Translations under genes and position numbers: made by a program
Source of the DNA: an uncultured Alphaproteobacteria bacterium
GTDB taxonomy: Bacteria; Pseudomonadota; Alphaproteobacteria; Rs-D84
DNA: 64,000 bases
Assembly (NCBI GenBank): GCA_949878575.1
Contig: CATLAX010000001.1
Span: 99,214-163,213 of the forward strand
Direction of reading: 5' to 3'
In this document: piece after piece, positions 31,425-48,658 of the stretch
Layout: each line of letters starts with the position of its first letter
Position numbering within the stretch: the stretch's first letter is position 1
The notes under the pieces: model-generated
What the model was told of the DNA's origin: nothing
The model's input: only the letters and a program-made list of their open reading frames with translations
The model's database searches: none

Positions 31425-31542
31425 ACATGATTTTTATGTATAGTGATTGTTTGAAGTTTTGGCGGGCGGCGTCGTTTTTTGTTGAGAAGGCGCAATGCAC
31501 GGCGCCGCCCCGCATGAAAAAGACCACCGTAATAAATTATGG

Positions 31543-31627
31543 CGGTCGGGGTGTTTACAAAGCATAACGTGGTGCCCCTGCCGGTCTTTGGCCAAAGCCT
31601 GTTTTATAACCAACAGCACCCCGACCG
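31543..31627 (-). ncRNA. C4/CI-like antisense RNA (copy A)
   Basis: 11-bp closing stem CGGTCGGGGTG/CACCCCGACCG, two internal stems, segments CGTTATG and TTGTAAA complementary to upstream CATAACG and TTTACAA. Confidence 0.6.
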
Positions 31628-31751
31628 TACTGTCAGAGTGTAACGGTGCAAAATTGCAACCGTATACGGATTTCAGTCTGATGCAACTTGCACCGTTCGT
31701 TATGGGCTTGTAAAGGCCCCGAACCTAAATTCCCATTCAGATTCACTTATT

Positions 31752-31780
31752 ATTATATAATGCGCCCCTGTTATTTACAA
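31752..31780 (-). promoter_or_regulatory. sigma70-type promoter for the copy A transcript
   Basis: TTGTAA-17 bp-TATAAT on the minus strand. Confidence 0.7.
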
Positions 31781-31807
31781 GAATATATTCTTTTTCGGCC
31801 CATGCGC

Positions 31808-33073
31808 CTATTTTTTGCGAAAGCCGTCCCAGTATTCCAGACGCTTTTTTATCTCGCGCTCAAAACCGCGTTCAACGGGATGGTAAAACCTTTGCCGCGG
31901 CATGTCCTCCGGAAAACAGTTTTGACCACTGCATCCCGTCGCCGTGTCCGGATCGTATACATATCCCGCGCCGTATCCCATGTTTTTCATCATTTTTGTA
32001 GGCGCGTTTAATATAACCTTGGGCGGGGGCAGGCTGCCACTGTCACGGGCGGCGGCATAGGCCGCCTTTTGCGCTTTGTAATTTGCAACGCTTTTGGGTG
32101 CGGTGCCCAAATATATTATTAATTCCGTTATGGCCAGATCGCCCTCAGGACTGCCCATGCGTTCATACAGCTGCCATGCGTTCAGCGCCATCTGCATTGC
32201 GTTCGGATCGGCCAGACCCACGTCTTCCATTGCAAAACGCGCCAGGCGCCGCAGCAGGTACATCGGATCCTGGCCGGATGTTAACATGCGCGCCGCCCAG
32301 TACAGCGCGGCATCCGTATCGGATGCGCGCAAAGATTTGTGAACGGCCGATATTAAATTGTAATGTTCGTCGCCGCTTTTGTCAGACAGCGGTGCGCGTT
32401 TCTGGACGGTGCTGTCCAGTTCCTCAGGCGAAAGTTCCGTGTCAAATCCGGCGGCCGCCAGGTATTCAACCGTGTTTAACAAAAATCGCGCGTCACCGTC
32501 CGCCATTTCCGCCAGGTGCAGTGCCGCCGCCGCGGTCAAGGGCAGTTTTTTGCTTAAAAATTCTTCGGCCCGGCGTATCAGCGTCATTAAGTCTTCTGTT
32601 CCCAGCGCCGTCAAAACACCGACGTGACACCGTGACAGCAGCGCGTTGTTCAAATTAAAACTGGGATTTTCGGTCGTTGCGCCAATGAATACAACCGTGC
32701 CGTCTTCCAGGTATGGCAGCAAAGTATCCTGCTGGGTCTTGTTAAAGCGGTGAATTTCATCAATGAACAGCAACGTGCCGCGGCCGATGTCGCGTGTCAT
32801 TCGCGCGGCCTCCATCGCTTTCTTTATATCTGCCGTGCCGGAAAACACCGCGGACATCGGTACAAAATCCATGTCAACAGACGCGGCCAGCGCCCGCGCG
32901 ATTGTTGTTTTCCCGCATCCGGGCGGCCCCCATAATATCAGGTTGGACAGTTTGCCCGCATCAACCATGCGGCGCACCAGACCCGTCGGCCCCAGTAATG
33001 CATGCTGGCCCAGCACATCGTCAATGGTGCGCGGGCGCATTAAATCGGCAAGCGGTCGGGTGTCTTTTGGCAT
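31808..33073 (-). CDS. rarA: replication-associated recombination protein RarA/MgsA
   Basis: PLADLMRP, GPPGCGKTT, FIDEIHRFNKTQQD, GATTENPSF, EDVGLADP. Confidence 0.95.
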   Translation of the reverse strand: MPKDTRPLADLMRPRTIDDVLGQHALLGPTGLVRRMVDAGKLSNLILWGPPGCGKTTIARALAASVDMDFVPMSAVFSGTADIKKAMEAARMTRDIGRGTLLFIDEIHRFNKTQQDTLLPYLEDGTVVFIGATTENPSFNLNNALLSRCHVGVLTALGTEDLMTLIRRAEEFLSKKLPLTAAAALHLAEMADGDARFLLNTVEYLAAAGFDTELSPEELDSTVQKRAPLSDKSGDEHYNLISAVHKSLRASDTDAALYWAARMLTSGQDPMYLLRRLARFAMEDVGLADPNAMQMALNAWQLYERMGSPEGDLAITELIIYLGTAPKSVANYKAQKAAYAAARDSGSLPPPKVILNAPTKMMKNMGYGAGYVYDPDTATGCSGQNCFPEDMPRQRFYHPVERGFEREIKKRLEYWDGFRKK

Positions 33074-33155
33074 TTTATTTTCGTTTTACTTTTATTTTAT
33101 TTGTCACCATGAATATGGTATAATGAATCAGGCAAATAAACAAGGATTATGTAAC

Positions 33156-33527
33156 GTGAATACAGGCGAAAAATTTGCAGACAATGATATTGCTGTTGCA
33201 ATTTTGGCGGCGGCAATAATCGGTGCGCGGCCCGATACGGCGCCAGATGCTGCGGTGGCGCAGGCGCGCAGAGCCTTGGCACCGCACGGGGCCCGTGCGA
33301 TTGGTGACGATAAAATCGCCGCATCCGTGCGCCGGGACAAGATTCAGTGTCTTGAGGACGGTTCGTGGCATACGATGCTGCGCCGGTATATAGCGCGGCG
33401 GTACAACATGACGCCGGCGCAATATCGTGCGAAATGGGGTCTGCCGGATGATTATCCGTTCGTGGCGCCGGATTATGCAAAAAAACGCTCGCGGATTGCG
33501 AAAAATTCCGGGCTGGGACGAAAATAG
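33156..33527 (+). CDS. MucR/Ros family regulator
   Basis: SVRRDKIQCLEDG, MTPAQYRAKWGLPDDYPFVAPDYAKKRSRIAKNSGLGRK; GTG start inferred from AAGGA. Confidence 0.85.
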   Translation: MNTGEKFADNDIAVAILAAAIIGARPDTAPDAAVAQARRALAPHGARAIGDDKIAASVRRDKIQCLEDGSWHTMLRRYIARRYNMTPAQYRAKWGLPDDYPFVAPDYAKKRSRIAKNSGLGRK

Positions 33528-33540
33528 AAAGGACCAAGAA

Positions 33541-34983
33541 ATGGGGGAAAAGTTCAGGCGGGCCGTCAACGCACCGCATCAGGCGTTCGGACGCGCACGA
33601 AAAAAAATAACCGCCATGAAGCCAAAGACAAAGCGTGGCAAGGTGGCGCGCGCAACCGGAATTACGATGACCGGCGTGTTTCAGTTTCTGCTGTGGGCGA
33701 TAAAGTACGCCGCGTTGGACAATTCGGCGCTGCTGGCGGGGGAACGCGCACTGCGCAATATGAAGGTTGGAAAAAACAAAAACGGTGAAAATAAAAAGTT
33801 TCCGGACATGGTTAAAAAATATCCGAACCTGTCCGTGCATGTTATTTCGTATTTGATGTTCGCCGTGACGGTCGGCGGGGTGCGGGCCTGTCACGATATG
33901 GTTGGCGATAAAGACTCTGGCCCGGCGGTTCCGCGGACAGAGTTTGCGCAGAACACGGGTGACGCACAGAAGGCAAGACCCGGGACATACGGGGCGTACC
34001 TAAACAGAATGCAGGCGATAACGCCGTTGCTGATTGCGGATTTAATCGCCAAAGAAGGCGTGCATACAGACGAGCGCGGCATGCACACCCCGTATCTGGA
34101 TTCAAAAGGCGTCCCCACAATCGGATTCGGTTCAACCGTTTTAAGCGACGGCAGCAAGGTTACAATGGACACGCCGCCGATTACGACGCAACAGGCCTAT
34201 GACCTGGCCAAATGGCATTTGGAGCGCGGGGAGACTTTTTTTGTCATGTACTGTTATGACGCGGCCTTTGACAAGGTTGACGTTAGCAGCACCGGCGAGG
34301 CGTTCGCAATGGCGTCAATAATTTACAATTCTTATAACAAGCTGATAGAGGATCCGGATGACAAAAACTGCAGGACAAGATTTGAAGAACTGCGACGGCT
34401 GTATGCGGCAGACGGCCTGAATGTTACGGACGGCATGGTGCGGGGACTGTTTAAAAAATATCCCGTCACGTCGCCGCGCAGTTTCGGAAAACAATGGCTG
34501 GGCGGGGCAAAGCCGAGCGTGCTGGCGGACAGTCTGGGCAACTTTTTGGCCGGCGGGCGCGGAATGTACTGGCGCCGCTGGCTGGAGGCTGGGCTGATTA
34601 CGGGCGACATAACGCCTGATATGATGCTGCGTTGTCCCGCAAACGGAATGTATGAGTTTTTTAAGGTAATGGGACAGAAAAGGGGGGCCTTTTTCACAGG
34701 GGACGGCCGGAATATTCATATAAACAAAAAGACGTACGGGGAATTTAAAAAATGGCTGCAAAACCCTGTTAATGAAAAGGGTGAAAAATTGAAGTGGAAA
34801 AGGGTGCGCGATGTTTTGCCGACGGCCATCCGCGGCCAGTGCGACAGGGGCTGGTGCGCTTTGGGCGAAAATAAAAAGACGGCGGCCGCGTTTGCAAAAT
34901 CTGCAAAAAAGGTTAGAAACAATGCACATAGCGCTGATTTTGATGTAAGCGGTTTTGTCTTTGACGAACACACAATGGCCTGA
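33541..34983 (+). CDS. membrane-anchored GH24 (phage-type) lysozyme-domain protein
   Basis: IAKEG...PYLDSKGVPTIGFG, ITTQQAYDL, GMYWRRWLE; hydrophobic segment before the domain. Confidence 0.7.
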   Translation: MGEKFRRAVNAPHQAFGRARKKITAMKPKTKRGKVARATGITMTGVFQFLLWAIKYAALDNSALLAGERALRNMKVGKNKNGENKKFPDMVKKYPNLSVHVISYLMFAVTVGGVRACHDMVGDKDSGPAVPRTEFAQNTGDAQKARPGTYGAYLNRMQAITPLLIADLIAKEGVHTDERGMHTPYLDSKGVPTIGFGSTVLSDGSKVTMDTPPITTQQAYDLAKWHLERGETFFVMYCYDAAFDKVDVSSTGEAFAMASIIYNSYNKLIEDPDDKNCRTRFEELRRLYAADGLNVTDGMVRGLFKKYPVTSPRSFGKQWLGGAKPSVLADSLGNFLAGGRGMYWRRWLEAGLITGDITPDMMLRCPANGMYEFFKVMGQKRGAFFTGDGRNIHINKKTYGEFKKWLQNPVNEKGEKLKWKRVRDVLPTAIRGQCDRGWCALGENKKTAAAFAKSAKKVRNNAHSADFDVSGFVFDEHTMA

Positions 34984-35002
34984 TACGGCAGAGGGTTTTT
35001 AT

Positions 35003-36946
35003 ATGAAGGTTTTTGTAAATTATGATGATGCGCGCTGGGAAAAATACGATATAGACTTTCAGCGTATTGCCGCGGCCGCCGGACCCGATCGCGCGGACGC
35101 TGAGGTTTCAATCACACTGGCCGACGACGATACCCTGCATGCGTTGAACCGGCAGTATCGCGCAATAGACCGGCCGACAAACGTATTGTCATTTGAACTG
35201 GGCGACGACATGCTGTTGGGCGACATATACATATCGCTGGATACTGTCCGTCGCGAGGCGGCGGCCGCCGGCATATCCGTGGAAGAACACGCCGCGCATA
35301 TGGTAGTGCATGGAATGCTGCATCTGCAGGGATACGACCACATAAAGGATGATGAGGCGGCAAAGATGGAGGCCAAAGAGGTTGCGGTACTAAAAAAGCT
35401 GGGGATAAAAAATCCGTATGAAGACGAATCCGCGGCCGCCGCGCCGAAACGCGGTTGGTGGCGGCGCGCATTGATTTTGGCGGCGCTGGGGGCGACGGCG
35501 GCCCTGGGCTTTGCGCCGACGCATTTTTGGTGGGCGACACTGGGCGCCGTCGGCGCGGCGTACTGGATTTTGACGTGCGCCCCGCGCGTCGGATTTTGGC
35601 GCGCATATCTGCGGGCGATGCCGTTTGGCGCGGCGTACGGGCTGGCCATGTTTTGGTGGGCACTAAGTTCAATATATGTTGTGCCGGAATTGGCGCGTCA
35701 ATTTGCGGTGTGGACGGTGCCGGGGGCGCTGGGGCTGGCGGGGGCGGGGGCGCTGGTGTTTGCCATGCCGTTCGCCGCCGCGAACCTATTCCGCCGCGCG
35801 GCCGCGCGGCCGTTTGCCTTTGCCGCCGTCACCGCCGCGGTGCTGTGGGCGCGTGAATGGATGTTTACGGGGTTCCCGTGGAACCCGCCGGCAAATGTTG
35901 TGATTAATTTTCCGTTTCTTGCAAATTCAATGGCTTTGTTCGGGGCGCTGGGGCTGACGTTTGTTGTTGCGGGACTGGTCGCGGCCAGTGTTGAAATAAT
36001 CCGCGATAAAAAATGCGCTATGTGCAGGATTTCCTGGCTTGCGTTCGTTTTTTTGTTGTGTGCCGGCATCGCGTATGGACGGCATAATGTTCATGTGGCG
36101 GCGTCCATGCCGGTGGCGGAAGGCCCCCTGATACGCGTGGTTCAGCCCGCAACGTCACAGGATCAAAAGATGTCCTATTCGCGCGAAGACGCCGTTGCGC
36201 AGGCCGAACGCAATGTGCGGAATCTGCTGGCGCTGGGGCGGGGCGGGGACGACGCGCGTCCGGATTTAATTGTTTATCCGGAAACGACTTACCCGTTTGT
36301 GGTTACGGACGACGACATGCCTTTTTCAAAGATTTTGGAAACGGATGTCGTAATGGGGGCGACGTCGTATCGCGACGGGCGCCTTTACAACTCTATGATT
36401 GTTGCGGACATGGACGGGCGCGTTTCGCATTTGTACAGCAAGGCGCATCTGGTGCCGTTTGGCGAATATTCGCCGCTGGGGCTGATGCCGTCGCCGGCCA
36501 ATCTGGCAAAGGGGCGCGGACCGGAAATTATAAGCTTTCCGGGGACGGATGGTTTTTCTTTTGCCCCCGCGATATGTTACGAGATTATATTTTCCGATTC
36601 CCTGGTGCCGGCGGGCGCGGATGCGGACGTAATAATAAACATAACAAACGACACGTGGTTTGGGCGCACGCCCGGAACGTACCAGCATCTGGACATGGTG
36701 CGCCGGTATGCGATTGAATCGGGTCTGCCGGTGGTGCGGGCGAACTATTCCGGCATCAGTGCGTTTGTGGCATCAGACGGCGCGGTTGTGTCGCGGATTC
36801 CAATCGGCCAGACCGGTGTATTGGACGGTCGCGCGCACGGTGCGCACATGACGCCGTACAGGGCGATGGGGCGTGACGCGTGGATGCTGATAATACTGGT
36901 GTTTGCGATTGTAGGCGCTGTTGCGGTATCACGTGGCAGGGAATGA
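35003..36946 (+). CDS. lnt: YbeY (rRNA maturation) - apolipoprotein N-acyltransferase fusion
   Basis: YbeY: LNRQYRAIDRPTNVLSF, LGDIYIS, HMVVHGMLHLQGYDH; Lnt: FTGFPWN, YPET, KAHLVPFGEY, ICYE, NDTWFG; no stop codon between them. Confidence 0.9.
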   Translation: MKVFVNYDDARWEKYDIDFQRIAAAAGPDRADAEVSITLADDDTLHALNRQYRAIDRPTNVLSFELGDDMLLGDIYISLDTVRREAAAAGISVEEHAAHMVVHGMLHLQGYDHIKDDEAAKMEAKEVAVLKKLGIKNPYEDESAAAAPKRGWWRRALILAALGATAALGFAPTHFWWATLGAVGAAYWILTCAPRVGFWRAYLRAMPFGAAYGLAMFWWALSSIYVVPELARQFAVWTVPGALGLAGAGALVFAMPFAAANLFRRAAARPFAFAAVTAAVLWAREWMFTGFPWNPPANVVINFPFLANSMALFGALGLTFVVAGLVAASVEIIRDKKCAMCRISWLAFVFLLCAGIAYGRHNVHVAASMPVAEGPLIRVVQPATSQDQKMSYSREDAVAQAERNVRNLLALGRGGDDARPDLIVYPETTYPFVVTDDDMPFSKILETDVVMGATSYRDGRLYNSMIVADMDGRVSHLYSKAHLVPFGEYSPLGLMPSPANLAKGRGPEIISFPGTDGFSFAPAICYEIIFSDSLVPAGADADVIINITNDTWFGRTPGTYQHLDMVRRYAIESGLPVVRANYSGISAFVASDGAVVSRIPIGQTGVLDGRAHGAHMTPYRAMGRDAWMLIILVFAIVGAVAVSRGRE

Positions 36947-36954
36947 TAAAATCA

Positions 36955-36988
36955 TATAAAAAAGCCGGCAAAGGCCGGCTTTTTTATA
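36955..36988. terminator. bidirectional intrinsic terminator
   Basis: TATAAAAAAGCCGGC-AAAG-GCCGGCTTTTTTATA. Confidence 0.85.
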
Positions 36989-37181
36989 TCTTGTTTTGCA
37001 GAATCCATACGCGCAGTGCGGACGACAGTGTTCGCGCGCCGCGTGCGGCGTCAATTTCACCGATTATGGCCGCAACCGGACGGTTCTGTTTTGCCGCGAT
37101 GGCGTGCAGGGCGGACATGAATTCCGCCTCAAGCGAAACGCTGGTACGGTGGCCGGACAAAGATACGGATATTTTCTTCAT
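36984..37181 (-). CDS. ribbon-helix-helix domain protein
   Basis: KKISVSLSGHRTSVSLEAEF...LSSALRVWIL, typical alphaproteobacterial RHH family. Confidence 0.85.
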   Translation of the reverse strand: MKKISVSLSGHRTSVSLEAEFMSALHAIAAKQNRPVAAIIGEIDAARGARTLSSALRVWILQNKI

Positions 37182-37183
37182 TT

Positions 37184-37618
37184 TTATATTTTCCCCGCCG
37201 CCAGGCAATCCGTCATGGCGTGGTATGCGTCGTTGTATTTCCGCAGCGGCCGCAGGTTCAGATTGTCAAGCATGAAAAATGTGCCGAATGCGTCAAATGC
37301 AAAAAAGAACAGATCGTTGCGGGCAAATATTGTTTTTCCGCGCAACGGCGCTATGTGCATCATTTCGCGGTTTATGTCAATAATCCCCGGTATGGGAAAC
37401 AGGGCGCCGCGTTTTATTTCCGTCGGTCCGAATATGTATCCGGCCCCGCGCGATATGCCGCCGGTCGCCCCGTACAGCTCTATCATTGCGGCCGGCAGCA
37501 TCGCCGCCCGCATGCTTTGCAGCAACGTGTTCGCCGTTGCAATATCGCGGGCCGCGGCAATTGGCGCCATGAAGGCGCCGCGTGCGCGCATGGAAGATAA
37601 AAATTCATCACGTGTCAT
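37184..37618 (-). CDS. SMI1/KNR4 (SUKH)-like protein
   Basis: PIAAARDI...LPAAMIELYGATGG...YIFG pattern; start at MTRDEF. Confidence 0.6.
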   Translation of the reverse strand: MTRDEFLSSMRARGAFMAPIAAARDIATANTLLQSMRAAMLPAAMIELYGATGGISRGAGYIFGPTEIKRGALFPIPGIIDINREMMHIAPLRGKTIFARNDLFFFAFDAFGTFFMLDNLNLRPLRKYNDAYHAMTDCLAAGKI

Positions 37619-37632
37619 ATGTGTCGCCCCCG

Positions 37633-38139
37633 TTATTCCATGCCGCGGCCGGCCACTATCTGGGCCGCAATCTGGGACAGGCGGTCTTCGGTTGCGTTGC
37701 CGCCGTCGCCGCCGCCCGCGGTATGCGCGGATATATAAATTTTCTTTGCCGGATTCGGCAGCCATATTGTTTCGTTCCCCGACTGGCCCAGAATAAAACG
37801 GTCCATGTTTTGGGAGTTTGGAAAAGTGGTGCACATGAACATGTTTTCCGGAATTATTTTCCCGCCCCATGCCATGGGAATGCGCATGCGGATGGATGTG
37901 TTTGCCGGCATTGCACGGCCCGTTATCAAATTCATAAAGTCATCCTGGGACAGGGACATCATCGCCAGTTCCTCAACCGAATCGGCCAGAGTGCGCATGA
38001 ATGCGTGCCTGGCGTCTTTGTACTTTGCAAACCAGTCCGGTGCAATCGGGGCGGGGGCGGGGCGCAGTTCTATCAGCGGCATGTCGTCCATGCCCATGTC
38101 CGCCATAATTTTTTCCGCTGATGACTGACTTATCTGCAT
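37633..38139 (-). CDS. degenerate HNH-nuclease-like protein
   Basis: GRAMPANTSIRMRIPMAWGGKIIPENM resembles GxxPxGYxVHHxxPLxxGGxNxxxNL with the His residues lost. Confidence 0.5.
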   Translation of the reverse strand: MQISQSSAEKIMADMGMDDMPLIELRPAPAPIAPDWFAKYKDARHAFMRTLADSVEELAMMSLSQDDFMNLITGRAMPANTSIRMRIPMAWGGKIIPENMFMCTTFPNSQNMDRFILGQSGNETIWLPNPAKKIYISAHTAGGGDGGNATEDRLSQIAAQIVAGRGME

Positions 38140-39050
38140 TATGTTTTGTCCATGTATGTTATAACGGTGTCAATGAATTCGGAATATGCGTCAAAATTTT
38201 CCTGTTCGCTGGCGTCGGCGGGGGGCGTGTTTTTATTTTCGCTTAAGTATTCGCGCAGTTCGTCCGTATCAGAGAACGTCCTTATGTCCGGGTTGCGTAT
38301 TTCAGACGACGGGGCGACGGCAAAGCCGTATATGGAGATTTCTATGTCGTCCAGGGTGTCCGCAAACAGGGACGCCAAGCGTTCCATTGCGTCGGCCAGC
38401 GGCTGCTCTTCAATATTTATGCCGCCGATGAACAGCTGCTCGTTTGTGCCGATGGCCAGCAGGGCCGGTTTGAAGTTTCCGATTTTTGGCGCGTCCTTGA
38501 CGGTATAGCCCGCGTCTTCAAATATGGCGCGCAGTGTCCGTTTTTGTTCATCTGTCGGGCCCGTTGGTGTGGCGGGCGGTGCGTATATCGGCGCGGCCGG
38601 CGCCGCGGTGCGCGGGGCGGAACGAACCTCTGCCGATATTGCCGGGCGCATGGGCCGTGACGGCGACGGCGCCCGGGGCGGTGTTATGTCCAGCGCGGTC
38701 GCGGATTGCCGCGGCGCCGTTGGCGCGGCCGGTTCCTGGATTTCGGCGCGTGGTGCGGCATGTTTTGCGGCCGGTTTCTTGGTCCGTATCATGCGCAGCC
38801 GCCGCATAGCGTCCGCCGGCCGCATTAGTATGTACAGCACGACCAGGCATATTAGTATCGCCGCCGTCAATGATATATAAAACGCGGGGCGAACCGGTGT
38901 CTGAGCCGCCTGCAGATAACCCAGATACTGCCAGTGTTGAGTGGAAAATATATTAAAGCCGAACATGGTGTTAAGCCAAAAGCCGGCCCCCAGCGCCGAC
39001 GCCAGCAGCCACAATATGCAAATCAGAATACGTTCAATTTGTTTGCTCAT
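38139..39050 (-). CDS. membrane-anchored hypothetical protein
   Basis: two N-terminal TMs, Pro/Ala-rich linker, acidic C-terminal alpha/beta domain. Confidence 0.75.
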   Translation of the reverse strand: MSKQIERILICILWLLASALGAGFWLNTMFGFNIFSTQHWQYLGYLQAAQTPVRPAFYISLTAAILICLVVLYILMRPADAMRRLRMIRTKKPAAKHAAPRAEIQEPAAPTAPRQSATALDITPPRAPSPSRPMRPAISAEVRSAPRTAAPAAPIYAPPATPTGPTDEQKRTLRAIFEDAGYTVKDAPKIGNFKPALLAIGTNEQLFIGGINIEEQPLADAMERLASLFADTLDDIEISIYGFAVAPSSEIRNPDIRTFSDTDELREYLSENKNTPPADASEQENFDAYSEFIDTVITYMDKT

Positions 39051-39093
39051 TTGTCTTTTATTGTATCATATTTATGGTAAACTAAAAAGTATA

Positions 39094-39783
39094 ATGATAG
39101 GAACGGATGATTATTTTGACGATATAGGCGCGCACAAGGCGTTGTGGTGCACGGCGCCCGATTCCGGTGATTTGGCCCGTGTGGCCGCAATGGCGGCCTT
39201 GCATCCGATGCCAATGATATCCGCCGTCCCCGATGATGTGGCGATGCTGTGGGCGTGGCTGGAAAAGACGCCTGCGCGGATATTTGCGCGATTTTACATG
39301 CCGGCGCGCGGGGCGCGTGATGAACGCGTTGTTTCCGGTTTGACCGCTCGGATAAACACCGCGTTTAAACAGGGGGCGCATGGCGCGCAGATTTTTATGC
39401 GGGCCTCGGACTTAATGGATTTTGCGGACGGAATGGGTGCCGTTCGTGATGATTTGTTCTTTAACCGTACGCTGGCCGTTGGCGTTGATGTGGCGGATGT
39501 CGGGCCTTTTGAATGGGGGGGCGTGTTTGATGCGGTCCGCCGCCTGCGGGCCGGGGCGCTGGTAATCGTGCTGGCGCGGGACGGCGGTGCGCGGTGTGAT
39601 TTTGTCGGGCGGATTTATGCGGCGCTGAACGCGGCGGCGGATGCAAAGTGTGATTTGCATTTCGTTCTGGGCGGCGCGGCCATGCGGGCCGAACAGGCGT
39701 TGCGCCTGGTCCGTGCAATGCGGCCTGAAATGGCGGGCGGCGTGCGGGTTTTTGTGCCGGCCGGCAACGGGGGTGTGTCATGA
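39094..39783 (+). CDS. hypothetical protein, possible degenerate DeoC-like TIM barrel
   Basis: alternating beta/alpha pattern; AFKQGAHGAQIFM resembles AxxxGAxEIDMV. Confidence 0.5.
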   Translation: MIGTDDYFDDIGAHKALWCTAPDSGDLARVAAMAALHPMPMISAVPDDVAMLWAWLEKTPARIFARFYMPARGARDERVVSGLTARINTAFKQGAHGAQIFMRASDLMDFADGMGAVRDDLFFNRTLAVGVDVADVGPFEWGGVFDAVRRLRAGALVIVLARDGGARCDFVGRIYAALNAAADAKCDLHFVLGGAAMRAEQALRLVRAMRPEMAGGVRVFVPAGNGGVS

Positions 39784-40337
39784 AAAAAGTAATTATGGTT
39801 TTGTTTGTGTGTACGCCGGTTGCCGCAATGGCGATGGCCGACGCCACGCCGCCGGTATACGGTCGGCCGACGTTGTATGGCGAGTATGAGGCTGGCGCCC
39901 GTGATGCGGCGCGCGCGGCCCGGTTGTATGGTGATACGCCGCGTGCGGCGGCAATTGTTGCAAAAACAGGCGCCGCATCGGCCAGGCGGCCTGTGAAGGC
40001 AAAGGCGGCGGCGCCAAAGAAAGTGGCAAAAAAGAAGTCCGCAGATAAAAAGCCGTCGCCTGTAAAGGCGTCGCCGGCGCGCCGCGCCGATGTTGTACAG
40101 GTGCCGCCGCGCGTGATGGGTGCGGAAAAACCGGCGCCCGCACCGGTGCCGGAAAAGGCGCCATATGCGCCGTCGCCGTCGGTTGTTGCAATCGCGGGCG
40201 CCGCCAAAGACAGGCATGAAATGCGGGATGTTGATTCTTTTTGCACCCGCCGCGGCGCGCCGGTGCGCAAATCCGGCGTTCCGGGAATTGTTCTGATGCC
40301 GGGACGGCCTGATTTAATGAGCTGTGGCGTAAAATAG
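39780..40337 (+). CDS. exported hypothetical protein, Ala/Lys/Pro-rich
   Basis: signal peptide, low-complexity centre, C-terminal Cys pair. Confidence 0.65.
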   Translation: MKKVIMVLFVCTPVAAMAMADATPPVYGRPTLYGEYEAGARDAARAARLYGDTPRAAAIVAKTGAASARRPVKAKAAAPKKVAKKKSADKKPSPVKASPARRADVVQVPPRVMGAEKPAPAPVPEKAPYAPSPSVVAIAGAAKDRHEMRDVDSFCTRRGAPVRKSGVPGIVLMPGRPDLMSCGVK

Positions 40338-40964
40338 CTATTTGTTTTTTATCACGATATATTTTGGCGCGGATGTCGCCGCCATGTTTTTGTTCTGGTA
40401 GCGTGTGCGAACAATATCCAGTGACGGTGTTTCGTACGCCACGCGGGCATCCATTGCGCGCGCGCAAATCCAGTCAAAATATTCCCAATGGTCGGTGCCG
40501 ATTATTATTTCGCCGCCCGGCGCCAGGCGGCCCGCCAGTGTTTTTATAAATTCCGTCTGTAACAGGCGTCGTTTTTCATGACGCGCCTTTGGCCATGGGT
40601 CGGGGTGCAGAATCCATATGCGTTCAAACAGGGTGTTGCATTCGCGCAACAGTCCGCGCACGTCGTCCGGCCATATTCGTATGTTTTTATATTCCGGCAA
40701 AATATTGTTTTTCCCGTCTGTTATCGCCGACATTAATGACGCCACGCCGTTTACAAACGGTTCCGCACCGATAATTGTTTTTTTCGGATTTTCAAGTGCG
40801 ATGGCGCGCACGTGTTCGCCGGCGCCGAAGCCTATTTCCAGTATAACGCGGCCCGCCGGTAATTTTTCCGGCCGCGGCAGCCTGTTTTCAATCAGCCACT
40901 GTTGGCGTGCGGACAGTTTTTTGCCGTGTCGCCGCCCAAAAGTTCTTATTTCTTGTTTTTCCAT
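40338..40964 (-). CDS. trmB: tRNA (guanine-N7)-methyltransferase
   Basis: RTFGRRHG, LEIGFGAGEH, PDPWPKARHEKRRL, TRYQ. Confidence 0.93.
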   Translation of the reverse strand: MEKQEIRTFGRRHGKKLSARQQWLIENRLPRPEKLPAGRVILEIGFGAGEHVRAIALENPKKTIIGAEPFVNGVASLMSAITDGKNNILPEYKNIRIWPDDVRGLLRECNTLFERIWILHPDPWPKARHEKRRLLQTEFIKTLAGRLAPGGEIIIGTDHWEYFDWICARAMDARVAYETPSLDIVRTRYQNKNMAATSAPKYIVIKNK

Positions 40965-41011
40965 ATAATTAGTATAAAATTGCAAATGCAATAAAACAAG
41001 GTTATTTAATT

Positions 41012-42589
41012 ATGAGACAAGGTTTACCCGCCGATTTGATTGAGCGCATACTGGGGGCGGCCCCGAAATACACGATGGAGCAGTTGGAAAAGAAATTCCC
41101 GCCGCGTAATTTGAAAGAGGGGGCCTGTGTCACCCGATTCGCGCCCAGTCCCACGGGATTCATGCATTTGGGCGGATTGTACGGTGCACTGATTGACTGT
41201 AAGCTGGCACGGCAGACGGGCGGTGTTTTCATGCTGCGCATAGAGGACACGGACACCAAGCGCGAGGTTGAATCCGCCGTTGACGTGATAGTGTCGTCCA
41301 TGCACCGGTTCGGTTTGGCGTATGACAATGATGAAACGTACGGACCTTATCATCAATCGCAGCGGCGCGACATTTATCACAGTGTGGCGGCGGACCTGAT
41401 GGCGCGCGGTATGGCGTACCCTTGCTTTTTGACGGCGGACGACATGGAAAAGATTCGTGAAAATCAAAAGGCGGCGGGGTTTGCGACCGGTATTTACGGT
41501 GAATTTGCACGCGACCGCGATTTGACCGCGGATGAAATAGCCGCCCGTCTGGACGCGGGGGTGTGTCCGTCGGTGCGCCTGTATTCCGAAGGGAATCCGG
41601 AGCGGCGCATTTTCTGCAAGGACGTTGTTCGCGGTTCAATCGGATTTCCGGAAAACAACGAGGATATTGTCTTAATCAAGTCAAACGATAAACTGCCGAC
41701 GTATCATTTCGCGCATCTGGTGGACGATCATTTTATGCGCACAACGCACGTTGTCCGCGGCGAGGAATGGCTGCCGTCGTTTCCGTTGCATACGGCGCTG
41801 TTTCGCATGATGGGATGGGCCGCGCCGATGTACATTCACACGTCAACCATTGATAAAATTGATGCCGAAACCGGCAAGCAAAGAAAACTGTCCAAGCGCA
41901 AGGATCCGGAGGCAAACGTTGAATATTTCCTGCGCGACGGATGGCCGGTGGAGGCGGTGCTGGAATACCTGGGTAATATTGCGGCGTCCGGTTACGAGGA
42001 GGCAAAGACCAAAGGCACGGTAAAATCCATTTGGGATTATGAAATGCGGCCTAAAAAGATACCGATGTCGGGTGCGCTGTTTGACATGAAGAAGCTGGAA
42101 TGGTGGGCCAAAGAATTTATCGCCACAATGCCGGTGTCGGATTTGGCGGCGCGCATTACGGAATGGGCGACGGAGTACGGCGACAAAAATCACAAGAAAC
42201 AGATTGCAAATTCAGAGTATCTGGCGGCTGTTCTGGGGATAGAGCGCGACAATCCAAAACGTATCCGCAAGGATTTCATAACATGGCGCCAGACGCTGGA
42301 TACTGTTGGTTTCTTCTGGGATGAATTGTTTGTGCCGAATATGGAATTTGAATACAACCGTGATGTACTGCGTGAATTTTTGCGCGTCTATGACCCGGCG
42401 GACGACAAGGATGCATGGTGGGCAAAAATGGTCGCGATTGCCGAAAACTTGGGAATTAAAAACGGCGATGCGGCGATGACACTGCGCGTGGCGCTGGCGG
42501 GGCGCACTAACACGCCCGATTTGTATTCCATTATAAAAGTTATGGGGCCCGTGCGCGTTCGTGCCAGAATAGGAGAGATTTTAAAATGA
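41012..42589 (+). CDS. gltX: glutamate--tRNA ligase
   Basis: TRFAPSPTGFMHLGG, LRIEDTD, PTYHFAHLVDDHFM, RGEEW, KLSKRK. Confidence 0.95.
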   Translation: MRQGLPADLIERILGAAPKYTMEQLEKKFPPRNLKEGACVTRFAPSPTGFMHLGGLYGALIDCKLARQTGGVFMLRIEDTDTKREVESAVDVIVSSMHRFGLAYDNDETYGPYHQSQRRDIYHSVAADLMARGMAYPCFLTADDMEKIRENQKAAGFATGIYGEFARDRDLTADEIAARLDAGVCPSVRLYSEGNPERRIFCKDVVRGSIGFPENNEDIVLIKSNDKLPTYHFAHLVDDHFMRTTHVVRGEEWLPSFPLHTALFRMMGWAAPMYIHTSTIDKIDAETGKQRKLSKRKDPEANVEYFLRDGWPVEAVLEYLGNIAASGYEEAKTKGTVKSIWDYEMRPKKIPMSGALFDMKKLEWWAKEFIATMPVSDLAARITEWATEYGDKNHKKQIANSEYLAAVLGIERDNPKRIRKDFITWRQTLDTVGFFWDELFVPNMEFEYNRDVLREFLRVYDPADDKDAWWAKMVAIAENLGIKNGDAAMTLRVALAGRTNTPDLYSIIKVMGPVRVRARIGEILK

Positions 42590-43332
42590 CAAAAAGCAGA
42601 AAGGTTGTTCGTAAAAAACTGAAACAGGTAAAAAAAGATTCGCATGCGTCACACTTGTTGCGAGTGCTGCGTGCGGCCGGTCTGTTCCGGTGGGAGCGCC
42701 CGTCAAGCCGCGCCGAGGAAGTGTTGAATATTTTAACGCACGGTATCGGCATAGGGCTGGCGATGGCCGGATTGACACTGTTGGTGGTGTTTGCGGTATT
42801 GGCCCATAACACCTGGGCGATTGTGTCGTGTGCGATATTCGGGCTGACCATGTTCACGTTGTATTTCGGTTCCACCATGTGTCATGCGATGATCGGCCAA
42901 AAATCAGAGTGTTTTTTTGAGGTCTGGGACAGTGTCGCTATTTATGCGCTGATTGCCGGAACGTATACGCCGTTTTGTCTGGTTAATCTGCGCGGTGGAC
43001 TGGGGTGGACGGTATTCGGCATTTTATGGGCGATTACCATATTTGGTGCGGCAATGAAGATTGCGCGTCCCAAAGAGCAGCCGAAATGGATGGTGTTGCT
43101 GTATCTGGTCATGGGATGGACGCTGTTGTTTATTCTGCCGGCGATGCTGCGCCATATATCCGCGCGCGGAATGTGGTTTATTCTGGCGGGGGGGCTCTCG
43201 TATTCGCTGGGGGTGATATTTTACCTGTGGCGGCGCATGAAGTATTCCCATGCCGTGTGGCATCTGTTTGTAATCGGCGGCAGTGTGTGTTTCTTTTTCG
43301 CCGTTTTGTTCGGATGTATTATTGATTTCTAA
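42586..43332 (+). CDS. hemolysin III / PAQR family membrane protein
   Basis: EEVLNILTHGIG, DSVAIYALIAGTYTPF, HAVWHLFV. Confidence 0.92.
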   Translation: MTKSRKVVRKKLKQVKKDSHASHLLRVLRAAGLFRWERPSSRAEEVLNILTHGIGIGLAMAGLTLLVVFAVLAHNTWAIVSCAIFGLTMFTLYFGSTMCHAMIGQKSECFFEVWDSVAIYALIAGTYTPFCLVNLRGGLGWTVFGILWAITIFGAAMKIARPKEQPKWMVLLYLVMGWTLLFILPAMLRHISARGMWFILAGGLSYSLGVIFYLWRRMKYSHAVWHLFVIGGSVCFFFAVLFGCIIDF

Positions 43333-43358
43333 AAAAACGGGGGAGGCCCCGTTTTTTT
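43331..43358 (+). terminator. intrinsic terminator
   Basis: AAAAAAACGGGG-GAGG-CCCCGTTTTTTT. Confidence 0.85.
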
Positions 43359-43359
43359 A

Positions 43360-43387
43360 TTGTAAATGTTTTTGTTGAATATATAAT
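43360..43387 (+). promoter_or_regulatory. sigma70-type promoter for the copy B leader
   Basis: TTGTAA-16 bp-TATAAT. Confidence 0.6.
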
Positions 43388-43478
43388 TTTTTATGTCTTT
43401 GGGTGTTTCAAAGACGGGACCTAGAAATCTCTTGCAAAGCGCAGGGCGTGTTTAACACCTGTGAAAAATCCCAACCGT

Positions 43479-43549
43479 TGGTTGGGAGAGTGCCGAATAT
43501 ATAGAATAAGGCACGCAATTTCTTTGGATTGTTTCTAGTCTCCCGACCA
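43479..43549 (+). ncRNA. C4/CI-like antisense RNA (copy B)
   Basis: closing stem TGGTTGGGAGA/TCTCCCGACCA, P2 GTGCC/GGCAC, P3 GCAATT/GATTGT, junction TTTCTAG complementary to upstream CTAGAAA. Confidence 0.65.
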
Positions 43550-43572
43550 TCAGAAATGATGGTTGTTTTTTT
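43545..43572 (+). terminator. leader terminator hairpin
   Basis: GACCATCA-GAAA-TGATGGTT followed by GTTTTTTT, upstream of the DUF1796 start. Confidence 0.7.
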
Positions 43573-43604
43573 GCAAATACGATAGGAATAAAAGGAAATT
43601 GCAA

Positions 43605-44657
43605 ATGAAGGATTTTACCGCAAATTTTGTTTCAATGTTTATTGCGGACAAAAAACGCCGTCGTACGGTGCGCCGTAAAATAAAACACTGGAATGAACTG
43701 ATTTTGCCGACAGATGCGCAAAAAATGATAGCCGCCGCCACGGCACAGAATTTAGAGCAGGCGAGGAAAGAATATGATTTGTCAAAACTGCGTGAGGCCG
43801 CGGCAAAAAATCATGATTTGGCACGTCAATATATTGAGGTAAAAAAACAATGGCGCCGTCGGTGTGGCGGCGCGGCACCATTGCCGGGACGCTTTGCGGA
43901 ATATGATTTGGTGTTCGCAATAGGGGCGACATGTCATGTTTCATCGTTGTTGGCCTTTCATAAACTGCGCACGTTTTCGTCGCCGTTGGAATGGACTGCG
44001 GGGACAGAGCCGGAATTTTGGTATTCCAAACCGAATATATGGCGGGATTCGCGTTTTAAAGAGAAAATAAACGCGTTGTGCAACGATTTTAAAGACTGGT
44101 TTAATCCCGGTGATTTGCGGCCGGTAAGTCATTGGATGGCTAAAGAGGCGCATCAGGGCATTATAAACACAAAAACAAATATCAGATGGATGCATTTGTT
44201 TTCCAACAAAGAAAGTTTTGAATTGCAGATTGATAAAATACGTCAAAAAATGCAGATGCGTTCTGACAGGCTGCTTAAAGCCATAGCTGAATCGGAGCGT
44301 GTATTGGTGTGCTGGGTTGCCACTGTTGGCGATCAATGCTGTTTATTGGAGGCGCCCGTTTCTGATAAAGACATAAAGGATGCGCTAAAAAAACTGCATA
44401 AAAAATGGCCGGGCAAAGAATTTGATTTCGTTTTCTTTGAGCATGACGGGCGTAAAAATATATATGAATTTGACAGGATAGAGGTTGCGCCCAGCGCATA
44501 TCGTGTTCGCAGCAACCATTTCTTTAATGAAAATGCATATCGTTTTGTTGCGTCTTATTTGGAACATATTTGGCCAGAACCGGTAATGGCCGAAATGCTG
44601 GATAACGTATCCCTGACGGACAAGTTGGCGGATTTTATGAAGGCGGAGCAGGGATAG
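43605..44657 (+). CDS. DUF1796-like putative papain-fold cysteine peptidase
   Basis: YDLVFAIGATCHVSSLLAFHKLRTFSSPLEW matches the S/AxGxxC...LRxxSxPxD/EW pattern; RBS AAGGA. Confidence 0.65.
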   Translation: MKDFTANFVSMFIADKKRRRTVRRKIKHWNELILPTDAQKMIAAATAQNLEQARKEYDLSKLREAAAKNHDLARQYIEVKKQWRRRCGGAAPLPGRFAEYDLVFAIGATCHVSSLLAFHKLRTFSSPLEWTAGTEPEFWYSKPNIWRDSRFKEKINALCNDFKDWFNPGDLRPVSHWMAKEAHQGIINTKTNIRWMHLFSNKESFELQIDKIRQKMQMRSDRLLKAIAESERVLVCWVATVGDQCCLLEAPVSDKDIKDALKKLHKKWPGKEFDFVFFEHDGRKNIYEFDRIEVAPSAYRVRSNHFFNENAYRFVASYLEHIWPEPVMAEMLDNVSLTDKLADFMKAEQG

Positions 44658-44717
44658 GTATGCGGGGGACGAAATGTCCCCTTGATTTTTTTTGCGCCAT
44701 GTATTATTATAACGGGG

Positions 44718-44774
44718 ATGAAAAAATACATGTTTGTTTTTACAGCCACAACTACGACCCCTTTGGGGGTGTAA
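44718..44774 (+). CDS. putative thrS leader peptide MKKYMFVFTATTTTPLGV
   Basis: ATG at 44718, TAA at 44772; five Thr codons including the run ACA ACT ACG ACC; ends 85 bp upstream of thrS. Confidence 0.7.
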   Translation: MKKYMFVFTATTTTPLGV

Positions 44775-44859
44775 TTTCTATTTGCGGTTTTTGCCGCGCG
44801 CGTTATAATCAAATCATACTTTAATTTAATCTAAACAAGTTATTTAAGGGTTATATATT

Positions 44860-48229: not shown

Positions 48230-48658
48230 TTATCTGCGTTGCTCGTATTCTTCCTGTTCTTCTATTGTCATGGTGGCCAGGGGGCGCGCCAGCATGCGGG
48301 ACAGGCCTATTTCTTCGCCAGATACGACGCTGTATCCGAACGTGCCGTTTTCAAGACGTTCCAGCGCGGCGTTTATTTTTCGCAACAGGTTGTTGTCACG
48401 ACCCGCCATGCGCAGGTTCATTGTAATTTCCTGTTCAAACGAGGCGTTGTCGGAATCGTCGCCGACCCCCTCGTTCTCAGACTTTTCCGCCATGCGAACG
48501 GCGCTTAACACGGAATCGCTGTCCTGAACCAGTTCTTCCTTTTGCGCGTTTAGCAACTGATAAAAATATGCCAGATGATTCGGACACATGTACGGTTCCG
48601 ATTTTTTTGGCACATATTTTGGCGGTAATTGAATTGTCTTGTAATCTTGTGCGGGCAC
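48230..48658 (-). CDS. dksA: RNA polymerase-binding protein DksA
   Basis: EPYM...LAYF, DDSDNA (DxxDxA), KINAALERLENGTFGY...ARP; GTG start after AGGAG. Confidence 0.9.
   Translation of the reverse strand: MPAQDYKTIQLPPKYVPKKSEPYMCPNHLAYFYQLLNAQKEELVQDSDSVLSAVRMAEKSENEGVGDDSDNASFEQEITMNLRMAGRDNNLLRKINAALERLENGTFGYSVVSGEEIGLSRMLARPLATMTIEEQEEYEQRR

Follow-up and report, generated by a model that had tools for sequence, protein, structure and literature searches.

A large family of C4/sRNA-Xcc1-like antisense RNA units, possibly transcription gates, in a Candidatus Enterousia-like bacterium

Two structured RNAs encoded in a 64,000-nt stretch of DNA from an uncultured Alphaproteobacteria bacterium (assembly GCA_949878575.1, contig CATLAX010000001.1, positions 99,214-163,213, forward strand; hereafter the window) are very probably members of a large, lineage-specific family that forms a diverged branch of the phage-type C4/sRNA-Xcc1 antisense modules. 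We propose, more tentatively and as a model drawn from predicted folds, that each unit of this family is a self-addressed transcription gate. Taken as a whole, family identity together with gate mechanism, this is the explanation towards which we lean. C4-type RNAs are known as one-off immunity factors of phages and islands that block a ribosome site. In the genome described here the module has taken on a new build: it no longer has its ribosome-site target, it has gained a terminator fused to the core, and it has multiplied.

Results

Two units of one architecture in the window

A sequence-only reading of the window had described two C4-like cassettes, each with a TTGTAA/TATAAT promoter, a target hairpin opened by GGG, a closing stem, a terminator starting at GACC and internally matched seeds. 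We built two covariance models of our own, R1 (type B) and R2 (type A), and ran them on this genome and its genus relatives. The features of the two units are as follows.

Copy 1, type A unit A3:
31752..31780 (-), promoter TTGTAA-17-TATAAT, matching 10/12 consensus positions
31517..31745 (-), RNA of ~229 nt, from a start inferred from the -10 box to the end of the T-run
31698..31725 (-), 5' self-target module: G1 GGTTCGGGG, box a (CCTTTACAAGC), box b (CCATAACG)
31706-31725 (-), G1 and box a within this module, GGGGCC-TTTACAA-GCC
31617..31640 (-), C1:G2 hairpin (CACTCTGAC / GTCGGGGTG)
31544..31626 (-), core with closing stem G2:C2, H1, b' and a'; R2 score 108.3 bits
31626-31617 with 31553-31544 (-), closing stem, GGTCGGGGTG with CACCCCGACC
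31569-31563 (-), b' CGTTATG
31561-31554 (-), a' TTTGTAAA
31517..31547 (-), intrinsic terminator GACCGCC...GGTGGTC + T5

Copy 2, type B unit B2:
43360..43387 (+), promoter TTGTAA-16-TATAAT
43394..43572 (+), RNA of ~179 nt; R1 score 103.6 bits
43416..43439 (+), 5' self-target module: hairpin GGGA / TCTC whose loop holds box a CCTAGAAA, then box b TTGCAAAG
43416-43431 (+), G1 and box a within this module, GGGA-CCTAGAAA-TCTC
43469..43487 (+), C1:G2 hairpin (TCCCAACC / GGTTGGGA)
43480..43548 (+), core: H1 loop GAATATATAGAATAA; H2, its loop holding b' TTCTTTGG, 43520-43527; a' TTTCTAG, 43532-43538
43480-43489 with 43540-43548 (+), closing stem, GGTTGGGAGA with CTCCCGACC
43544..43572 (+), intrinsic terminator (stem 43544-43565), overlapping the last nt of C2
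43605..44657 (+), cargo gene, 350 aa, borderline DUF1796 (putative papain-like peptidase)
44664..44692 (+), terminator ending the cassette

Every feature of the earlier description is present. The promoter boxes are the same in both copies, with a spacer of 17 in copy 1 and 16 in copy 2; the GGG-opened hairpin is found as GGGGCC and as GGGA; and both copies have the closing stem, with which the terminator overlaps: in copy 1 the GACC at the head of its 5' strand doubles as the final 4 nt of C2. The seeds a and a' differ between the copies and match within each, and there is an additional matched pair, b and b', that had gone unremarked. In copy 1, G2 doubles as the 5' strand of the core closing stem, and the 5' module is predicted to pair with the core tail in a duplex of -36.8 kcal/mol. 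Both RNAs fold more stably than shuffled sequences (copy 1, MFE -84 to -93 kcal/mol, z -5.1; copy 2, z -4.9; 0/200 shuffles as good in each case). The grouping of the two copies in one family holds at the level of architecture, but they are of different subtypes, copy 1 being a long type A unit and copy 2 a short type B unit; the type-B model gives copy 1 only 26.7 bits.

That each cassette carries a single accessory gene is true of copy 2 and of most other copies, but not of copy 1, which has no gene downstream and whose RNA converges on a gene of the inositol-monophosphatase family. The adjacency of this gene and an MgsA-type gene around copy 1 was seen in 0/29 other genomes and is specific to this one. 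The cargo protein of copy 2 scores 23.1 bits against DUF1796 (cut-off 23), and homologues with 30-35% identity lie downstream of the RNA in 2 other genomes. The copy 2 insert, ~43361-44692, is flanked by the terminator of an HlyIII-family gene and by the thrS leader, and the site is empty in 5 related genomes.

Number, setting and layout of the units

The genome, of 945 kb, is that of a Candidatus Enterousia-like gut alphaproteobacterium. It holds ~33 intact units, 8 of the long type A and 25 of the short type B, the two window copies among them, or roughly one unit per 29 kb; with ~33 genomic occurrences, chance recurrence of the architecture is well excluded. The sequence-only reading had expected further copies, and these extend beyond this genome: for each of the two models, 22 of the 24 other genomes of the genus have matches, the richest having up to 46 with the type-B model (G012) and 50 with the type-A model (G018). 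Copy presence differs between species. Nor are the copies remnants of prophages as a class, since most lie between housekeeping genes; 6 recombinase genes were found, and no more than 4 loci come within ~6 kb of one.

A unit consists of a near-consensus promoter, a 5' module in which a G-rich hairpin presenting box a precedes box b, a core with b' and a', and a terminator that has 3-4 nt in common with the core closing stem. In most cases a gene with its SD lies downstream, the SD within ~20-30 nt of the T-run with no space for a promoter between, and most units are joined in this way to a cargo gene that has no separate promoter. The 5' a/b module is present in 31/33 intact units; the core-only units B7 and B15 each have their own promoter. 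Besides copy 1, A2 and a few others are without cargo. Cargo genes include small XRE regulators, surface proteins and defence-type genes.

Many of the copies in G018 are at contig ends. A larger mobile element around them was considered and rejected, because the RNA module alone repeats (~250-300 bp, 74-92% identity), the flanking DNA being unrelated in every pair except one. We also abandoned an attC-like reading of GTTGGAG/CTCCAAC: type A units carry GTCGGGG, and the motifs come in the wrong order. Four rat-gut runs labelled 'RNA-Seq' that we aligned to the sequence resemble low-depth DNA of a related strain and are uninformative on transcription.

Kinship with C4 and sRNA-Xcc1

An Rfam scan of the window at gathering scores returned tRNA only. 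The label C4-like is apt for the architecture, which is that of a1-b1-c4 of P1 and of sRNA-Xcc1 loci, but not for the Rfam score: the C4 model (RF01695, gathering score 45 bits) gave 0 matches at E <= 10 in both window regions and the whole genome, while as a control it recovered P1 c4 at 68.8 bits. The only Rfam family that matches is sRNA-Xcc1 (RF02221, gathering score 53 bits), at 8 sites with 30.8-46.7 bits, all below threshold. The core of copy 2 is one that scores below it, at 31.6 bits, and copy 1 gives no match to this model.

Cores of both subtypes align over their whole length with the sRNA-Xcc1 model and share its fold, in which a 9-10-bp closing stem encloses two hairpins, H1 (AUAxAA-type loop) and H2, and a 3' seed that is left single-stranded. 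Furthermore, 9/10 true members have a G-rich a1 hairpin followed by b1 as their best upstream duplex. The differences lie downstream of these shared parts. By our reading of the sequences, 7/10 true members have a2/b2 flanking the SD of the next gene, and those 7 have no terminator after the core, carrying instead a terminator-like hairpin between b1 and the core; the Enterousia-like units lack a2/b2 and have their terminator after the core. Copy number is also 5-10 times higher here, in a genome about 4 times smaller. Two sources describe sRNA-Xcc1 as often multi-copy and located before accessory genes (PMC12189769; bioRxiv 10.1101/2025.06.18.660453). Members occur in Xanthomonas integron cassettes, Xylella islands, an APSE phage and others.

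RNase P processes the C4 core from a precursor to a short stable RNA. Citron and Schuster are said to have reported in 1992 that P1 C4 is cut from a longer transcript; the units here, by contrast, end in a terminator of their own. They share with C4 of P1 and P7 the order promoter - a1 - b1 - core (b', a') (in P1 record AF234172, a1 is at 48255-61, b1 at 48269-76 and c4 at 48343-48419), as well as a specificity set by short paired boxes. They differ in that P1 C4, according to a note in the record, acts on a2/b2 at the icd ribosome site, no such site being present here, and in their location: most units are chromosomal and outside prophage, and a place in a phage immunity region ahead of an antirepressor gene was seen only for a relative on phage contig L228. 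In the accessible parts of the literature on sRNA-Xcc1, c4 motifs and Enterousia we found no published account of this family, on which the supplements of Weinberg 2010 and 2017 (c4-a1b1, c4-2) could bear.

Seeds that behave as private addresses

Gapless anchoring of box a is unsuited to some copies, which have a 2x1 internal loop, and column counts were taken instead from a MAFFT alignment not fitted to the long-range helix G1-a:a'-C2. In this alignment 94.1% of the cells of that helix are paired and 8/11 pairs show double changes, against 33-64% paired in slid controls; 0/500 shuffles were as good. RNAalifold, given the same alignment, returns the local a-hairpin, the closing stem, H1 and H2, with 15/26 pairs compensatory. 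G-U pairs are frequent in the covarying helices, which argues that this strand is read as RNA. The predicted duplex of the 5' module with its own core tail has a mean of -21.2 kcal/mol, compared with -12.7 for non-cognate pairs, and the cognate core tail ranks first in 17/30 copies and among the top 3 in 25/30.

In the paralogs B18 and B20, 17/42 seed positions differ compared with 10/442 elsewhere (p = 1e-13), and in one pair of G018 paralogs 19/42 compared with 82/1135. In tandem units the bias is reversed, with 2/36 seed differences against 73/189 elsewhere for B9/B10, and 6/39 against 48/139 for B16/B17. Thus the seeds, which diverge between near-identical dispersed paralogs and are preserved in tandem arrays, behave as private addresses, roughly 27 loci in the genome having one. 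The suggestion that the RNAs are orthogonal to one another is supported by this pattern. We regard it as a signature of selection for orthogonality, directly visible in the sequences, and as yielding natural RNA-RNA address pairs by the dozen, each orthogonal to the others. Where 4 other species have a copy at the equivalent slot, its seeds are different; by our reading, a/a' and b/b' are matched in G011, G042 and G016, but not in G012.

Predicted folds of the leader

Each of the 30 full-length copies has an MFE structure with the 5' part of C2 paired to G1; in 29/30 the last nt of C2 are in the terminator and in 29/30 G2 is paired with C1. The overlap of 3-4 nt between C2 and the terminator is found in 29/30 copies and in both subtypes. 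When the 5' module was forced to be single-stranded, 16/30 copies were predicted to flip to a fully closed G2:C2 core with loss of the terminator, among them 9/10 of those that precede XRE genes. The remaining 14/30 retained the terminator, both window copies among them. The term switch, as used in the earlier reading, is a prediction from folding, and neither of the two RNAs to which it was applied is predicted to flip.

A free core gained nothing when cofolded at equilibrium with the finished leader (cognate -1.7, non-cognate -0.5 kcal/mol), so any action in trans would have to be co-transcriptional. We found neither an Hfq nor a ProQ gene in the genome, which fits the presentation of the seeds in loops.

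Discussion

A possible self-addressed gate

Each unit very probably has a strong promoter of its own and joins a target copy (box a, displayed in a hairpin loop, and box b) to an antisense core (b' looped, a' single-stranded), with an intrinsic terminator directly before the RBS of one accessory gene. In the mechanism that we propose, a and b of the finished leader would pair in cis with a' and b', and C1 would hold G2; the 3' end of C2 would then be free to build the terminator, and the gene would be off. If, on the other hand, the 5' module were occupied during synthesis of the leader, the new core would close via G2:C2. A closed core would withdraw 3-4 nt from the terminator stem, and it is by this loss that RNA polymerase would read into the cargo gene. 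The natural candidate for the occupant is a free core RNA, itself hypothetical, with the same private address. Private boxes would keep the roughly 27 loci from cross-talk, tandem units would form a serial gate with one shared address, and copy 1, lacking cargo, would be an RNA-only member, as would the two core-only units.

A stronger form of this proposal, which we think unlikely, is that the cassette is an autonomous, protein-free RNA toggle, in which the free core binds its own nascent leader, flips the terminator and sustains the ON state. Were it true, a bacterium without Hfq or ProQ could switch ~27 surface, defence and regulator genes independently and heritably, a form of RNA-based phase variation built from a domesticated phage immunity RNA, and spread by phage as a ready-made expression gate for moron genes.

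Other explanations

A rather unlikely alternative to the gate is that the units are purely cis-acting structured leaders. Here a:a' and b:b' would be helices of one fold, and a ligand, protein or temperature would tune termination, the binding site being a conserved part, for example the H1 loop GAAUAUAUUGAAUAA, in the manner of a riboswitch or a protein-binding attenuator. The ground state is indeed one nested fold with the terminator in 30/30 copies, the loop and junction sequences of H1 are conserved while the helices covary, and trans pairing has no advantage at equilibrium. An a2/b2 target is also absent from the cargo start regions of 20 copies (cognate mean -9.5, non-cognate -9.2 kcal/mol), where the core tail ranks its own start region first only in B9 and B12. 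However, a structural helix gives no reason for paralogs to diverge in their seeds only, nor for the conservation of seeds in tandem. Box a and box b' each lie in a covarying hairpin loop of their own, a design typical of antisense RNAs, in relatives these boxes demonstrably also act on a second site, at a ribosome-binding site, and we see no metabolic theme common to the cargo.

We are more doubtful that the units are stand-alone immunity RNAs acting in trans against the a2/b2 sites of incoming phages or cassettes, with a/b serving to mask or mature the RNA and the cargo expressed by leakage. The model is the P1 prophage, which uses C4 to silence ant in a superinfecting phage. Heteroimmunity would be expected to select for diversified seeds, and P1 and P7 reportedly differ in this way. 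The cargo-less copy 1 and A2 and the core-only B7 and B15 are in keeping with this explanation, as are relatives of the family on phage contigs; on one of these, L228, a type-B-like core accompanied by a1/b1 and a2/b2 boxes stands ahead of an Ant (anti-repressor) gene. Yet we found no target for B7 or B15 in the genome: among sites sharing a 7-mer, the best non-self ones reach -22 kcal/mol, no better than the next matches. Immunity would also leave unexplained why most units are welded to cargo, and why the overlap of C2 with the terminator is conserved in both subtypes.

It is very improbable that the units are type I toxin-antitoxin-like pairs, in which the RNA restrains a harmful small protein. 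Many cargo genes are small (67-116 aa) and sit in dispersed single-gene cassettes, and others have made this proposal for sRNA-Xcc1, which in integron cassettes of Xanthomonas lies upstream of symE (bioRxiv 10.1101/2025.06.18.660453). The small proteins here, however, are XRE-type HTH proteins and not known toxins, other cargo proteins measure 170-411 aa, with lipoproteins, an adhesin anchor and an immunity protein among them, and the cargo start region shows no complementarity. Finally, a repeat acting as DNA (a recombination site, or REP/MITE-like) is scarcely credible: it would suit the high copy number, the variable presence across species and the contig ends in G018, but G-U pairs function on one strand only, as RNA, promoter and terminator are at fixed positions, the G018 repeat is confined to the RNA module, and the copy 2 insert has no visible target-site duplication.

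Relation to other leader RNAs

With as many as 46 and 50 model matches in related genomes, the family would be one of the densest families of RNA regulators per genome. The closest precedent for a self-addressed RNA that acts on its own leader is the CI RNA of satellite phage P4, which is made from the leader that it controls, pairs with complementary boxes upstream and downstream of itself on nascent transcripts and so decides termination. In P4, however, pairing causes termination, whereas folding predicts the opposite sign here. The proposed gate also resembles four-segment attenuators and T-box leaders in its competing segments, C1:G2 and C2:terminator against G2:C2. It differs from these in that the units have no leader peptide or specifier-type element, the proposed input being the unit's own address module rather than a ribosome, tRNA or metabolite. 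Like such leaders, the units occur in many copies per genome before different genes.

The two window copies and their family

Both C4-like RNA cassettes of the window proved to be as the sequence-only reading had described them, with promoters, RNAs and terminators located in the sequence as follows:

31780-31752, minus strand: promoter of copy 1, TTGTAA-17-TATAAT
31745-31517, minus strand: RNA of copy 1, ~229 nt, type A (long), unit A3
43360-43387, plus strand: promoter of copy 2, TTGTAA-16-TATAAT
43394-43572, plus strand: RNA of copy 2, ~179 nt, type B (short), unit B2
43544-43572, plus strand: terminator of copy 2

The stem of the copy 1 terminator opens with GACC. Both RNAs fold far better than shuffled sequences (z -5.1 for copy 1, -4.9 for copy 2). 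Checking gene identities confirmed the flanks assumed earlier: copy 1 has an MgsA/RarA-type AAA+ gene upstream and a convergent inositol-monophosphatase-family gene, and copy 2 lies between an HlyIII-family gene and, past its cargo, a threonyl-tRNA-synthetase-like gene. The suggestion that such cassettes carry single accessory genes holds for copy 2, whose cargo protein is 350 aa long and matches DUF1796 only at the borderline, but not for copy 1, which has no gene downstream.

The host genome is 945 kb on two contigs and 94.6% complete. Searched across it, the Rfam C4 model gave no match, and the Rfam sRNA-Xcc1 model gave eight matches below its threshold of 53 bits (30.8-46.7 bits). Profiles were built from these sRNA-Xcc1 sites, followed by two covariance models, R1 for whole type-B units and R2 for type-A cores. 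Intact units occur at about one per 29 kb, and the inventory is:

8 full-length type A units
23 full-length type B units
2 core-only units (B7, B15)
2 remnants

Common architecture

All full-length units share one 5'-to-3' order of elements:

1: sigma-70-type promoter
2: 5' hairpin P0
3: G-rich segment G1, box a and a C-rich segment, which pairs back to G1 and so places box a in a hairpin loop
4: box b
5: a hairpin, optional
6: segment C1
7: the core, consisting of G2, hairpin H1 (loop GAAUAUAUUGAAUAA in type B), hairpin H2 with b' in its loop, single-stranded a', and C2
8: terminator, whose 5' strand starts with the last 3-4 nt of C2
9: Shine-Dalgarno sequence (SD) and start codon, ~20-30 nt after the terminator

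We aligned 19 type-B units with MAFFT, fitting the alignment to no structure. RNAalifold recovered from it the a-hairpin, the G2:C2 closing stem, H1 and H2, with compensatory changes in 15 of 26 pairs. The alternative long-range helix G1-a:a'-C2, counted on the same alignment, is paired in 94.1% of cells and has double changes in 8 of 11 pairs; slid controls reach 33-64%, and none of 500 shuffles was as good. G-U pairs are frequent (AU:10, GU:7 at one pair, for example), which shows that the structure acts as RNA and that it is read on this strand.

Boxes as addresses

When the 5' module of each of 30 units is paired with the core tail of that same unit, the duplex averages -21.2 kcal/mol, against -12.7 (sd 3.4) for non-cognate combinations; the cognate tail ranks first in 17 units and among the top three in 25. 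Where dispersed paralogs are near-identical, their differences are almost confined to the boxes and are compensatory. Judged by these sequences, the boxes behave as private addresses. The sixth pair tested, B3/B19, is diverged over its whole length and its seed differences show no enrichment. Tandem units before one gene show the opposite pattern to the dispersed paralogs, their seeds being less diverged than the remainder.

Table. Differences between paired units within and outside the seed windows.
Pair; seed-window differences; differences elsewhere; Fisher p
B18/B20; 17/42; 10/442; 1e-13
B21/B22; 13/43; 39/436; 2e-4
B11/B22; 15/40; 51/438; 7e-5
B11/B21; 17/43; 51/438; 1.2e-5
Pair in genome G018; 19/42; 82/1135; 9e-11
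B3/B19; 16/43; 159/452; 0.87
Tandem B9/B10; 2/36; 73/189; 3e-5
Tandem B16/B17; 6/39; 48/139; 0.03

The copy 2 cassette (~43361-44692) is an insert between the terminator of the HlyIII gene and the thrS leader. At 5 of 29 loci from the genus this slot holds a type-B unit; in five genomes the site is empty (~206-249 bp), and others have different content. No target duplication was seen at the copy 2 insert. The seeds of the same-slot units from four other species differ from those of copy 2, and in three of the four (G011, G042, G016) we read a/a' and b/b' as matched; in the lowest-scoring copy (G012, 58 bits) box a could not be matched to a'.

The slot itself (43333-44860; loci L054-L082) is variable across the genus, with the RNA and DUF1796-like cassette in several genomes and other content of >1.5 kb in many. 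Upstream of the ThrRS-like gene at 44860 lies an 18-codon leader peptide, MKKYMFVFTATTTTPLGV (44718-44774, plus strand), with a run of Thr codons; a GC hairpin at 44757-44770 overlaps its end. Related genomes have the element conserved ahead of thrS (one version reads MKHIYFVLMTTTTTPAGV), and peptide and hairpin together look like a threonine-sensing attenuator for thrS.

Kinship and distribution

Of 151 Pseudomonadota genomes sampled, 24 have sRNA-Xcc1 members that score above threshold, and we fetched ten such loci for comparison. In nine of the ten, the best upstream duplex involves a G-rich hairpin presenting a1, then b1, and a terminator-like hairpin stands between b1 and the core; in seven of the ten, read from the sequences, a2 and b2 flank the SD of the next gene. 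The order annotated for phage P1 (a1, b1, c4, a2, b2, icd) is that of these true sRNA-Xcc1 loci. The type-B core motif is present on four contigs of IMG/VR. One, with tail sheath and tape-measure genes, has a full unit ahead of two secreted-protein genes; in another, a1/b1 (-31.1 kcal/mol) stand upstream of a type-B-like core, and by eye there are also a2 and b2 boxes preceding an anti-repressor Ant gene, b2 lying on the SD.

At cargo start sites of the present genome we found no a2/b2 (20 units; cognate mean -9.5 versus non-cognate -9.2 kcal/mol). The family thus draws on the C4 toolkit, while the step that is regulated seems to be a terminator and no longer the ribosome site. We conclude that the units very probably form a branch of the C4/sRNA-Xcc1-type modules that has diverged and expanded and whose addresses are private. 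The earlier interpretation is supported in its testable parts.

The closest ThrRS genes (85-89% identity) come from gut MAGs named Candidatus Enterousia, uncultured Alphaproteobacteria or uncultured Rickettsiales; Enterousia is placed in the order Rs-D84, which has reduced genomes (PMC12306168). Within the genus, R1 has matches in 22 of 24 other genomes (maximum 46, in G012) and R2 likewise in 22 of 24 (maximum 50, in G018); in other families of the order the counts are 10 and 12 of 16 genomes, respectively. At class level, with one genome per family, R2 matches 20 of 151 genomes; leaving the genus aside, 18 of 149 are matched, at 1-7 sites each. The unpublished genome G086 enters this tally with one weak match. 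Of four class-level loci examined, two share the a/b and b'/a' design, and one of these precedes a lipoprotein gene; a third, fetched as class-level (L128, genome G077), is a high-scoring type A unit of this design.

The repeats in G018 comprise the RNA module only (74-92% identity), ahead of secreted-protein genes. Its type A leaders (loci L119-L126) precede a family of secreted proteins sharing an N-terminus after the signal peptide (ASIVSRGF(L/F)(D/E)E...YAT), with variable C-termini.

Two predicted states

The two states described here are folding arithmetic only, on 30 full-length units. In the minimum free energy (MFE) fold, all 30 have G1 paired with the 5' part of C2; the last nucleotides of C2 lie within the terminator stem in 29, and G2 pairs with C1 in 29. 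The two core-only units have a closed G2:C2 core as their MFE fold. Forcing the 5' module to be unpaired flips 16 of the 30 to a fully closed core, taking C2 out of the terminator, and these include nine of the ten units ahead of XRE genes; in the folding of the other 14, both window copies among them, the terminator is kept.

We tentatively propose a self-addressed terminator gate, in which blocking of the 5' module would let the core close via G2:C2, with loss of the terminator and read-through into the cargo. At equilibrium a free core gains nothing on a finished leader (cofolding cognate -1.7, non-cognate -0.5 kcal/mol), so any trans action would have to take place during transcription. 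A leader working only in cis, a main rival, is rather unlikely in our judgement. Stand-alone immunity RNAs aimed at phages, another main rival, we regard as improbable. Neither an Hfq gene nor a ProQ gene was found in the genome; Rho is present.

Cargo and surroundings

Ten cargo proteins are small (74-116 aa) and of XRE helix-turn-helix type: those of B9 and B3 score above Pfam cut-offs, those of B4, B8, B11, B18 and B19 below them (E 7e-5 to 3e-3), and those of B20, B21 and B22 are near-identical paralogs. Other cargo includes a YadA-anchor protein, a superinfection-immunity protein, a NERD-domain protein (weak match), lipoproteins and cysteine-rich secreted proteins.

Recombinase genes are few in the genome: three of the tyrosine and three of the serine type. 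A6 comes straight after an integrase gene; the B5-B7 array, A7 and B13 have a recombinase no more than ~6 kb away, and the remaining loci have none at that distance. A6 (contig C2:106916-107800 of the present genome, G000) sits between that integrase gene, directly 5', and the superinfection-immunity protein.

Several XRE-type cassettes have a REP-like palindromic repeat (GTCATTGCGAGC ... GCAATCCAG) directly ahead of their -35 region, seen just upstream of B4, B18, B20 and B22 (loci L021, L035, L037, L039; G000 C1 ~298100 and C2 ~185500, 295530 and 403300), with several copies around a truncated unit at C1:297896-298160. A second conserved hairpin (loop CUUCUCAUCUCCAAUCA(A/G)A, stem GGGGCU.UACC / GGU.GCCCC) lies after two type-B units that lack cargo, B5 (G000 C1 ~328150-328230) and B13 (C2 ~23440-23500), and may be another small RNA or a processing signal. 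A4 and A5 (G000 C1:371538-371900 and C2:55456-55900) each begin right after a tRNA gene (at L007:1756-1829 and at L008:1962-2035, minus strand). At G000 C1:34600-35100, a single secreted-protein gene is preceded by a mixed tandem array, type B unit B1 and then type A unit A1.
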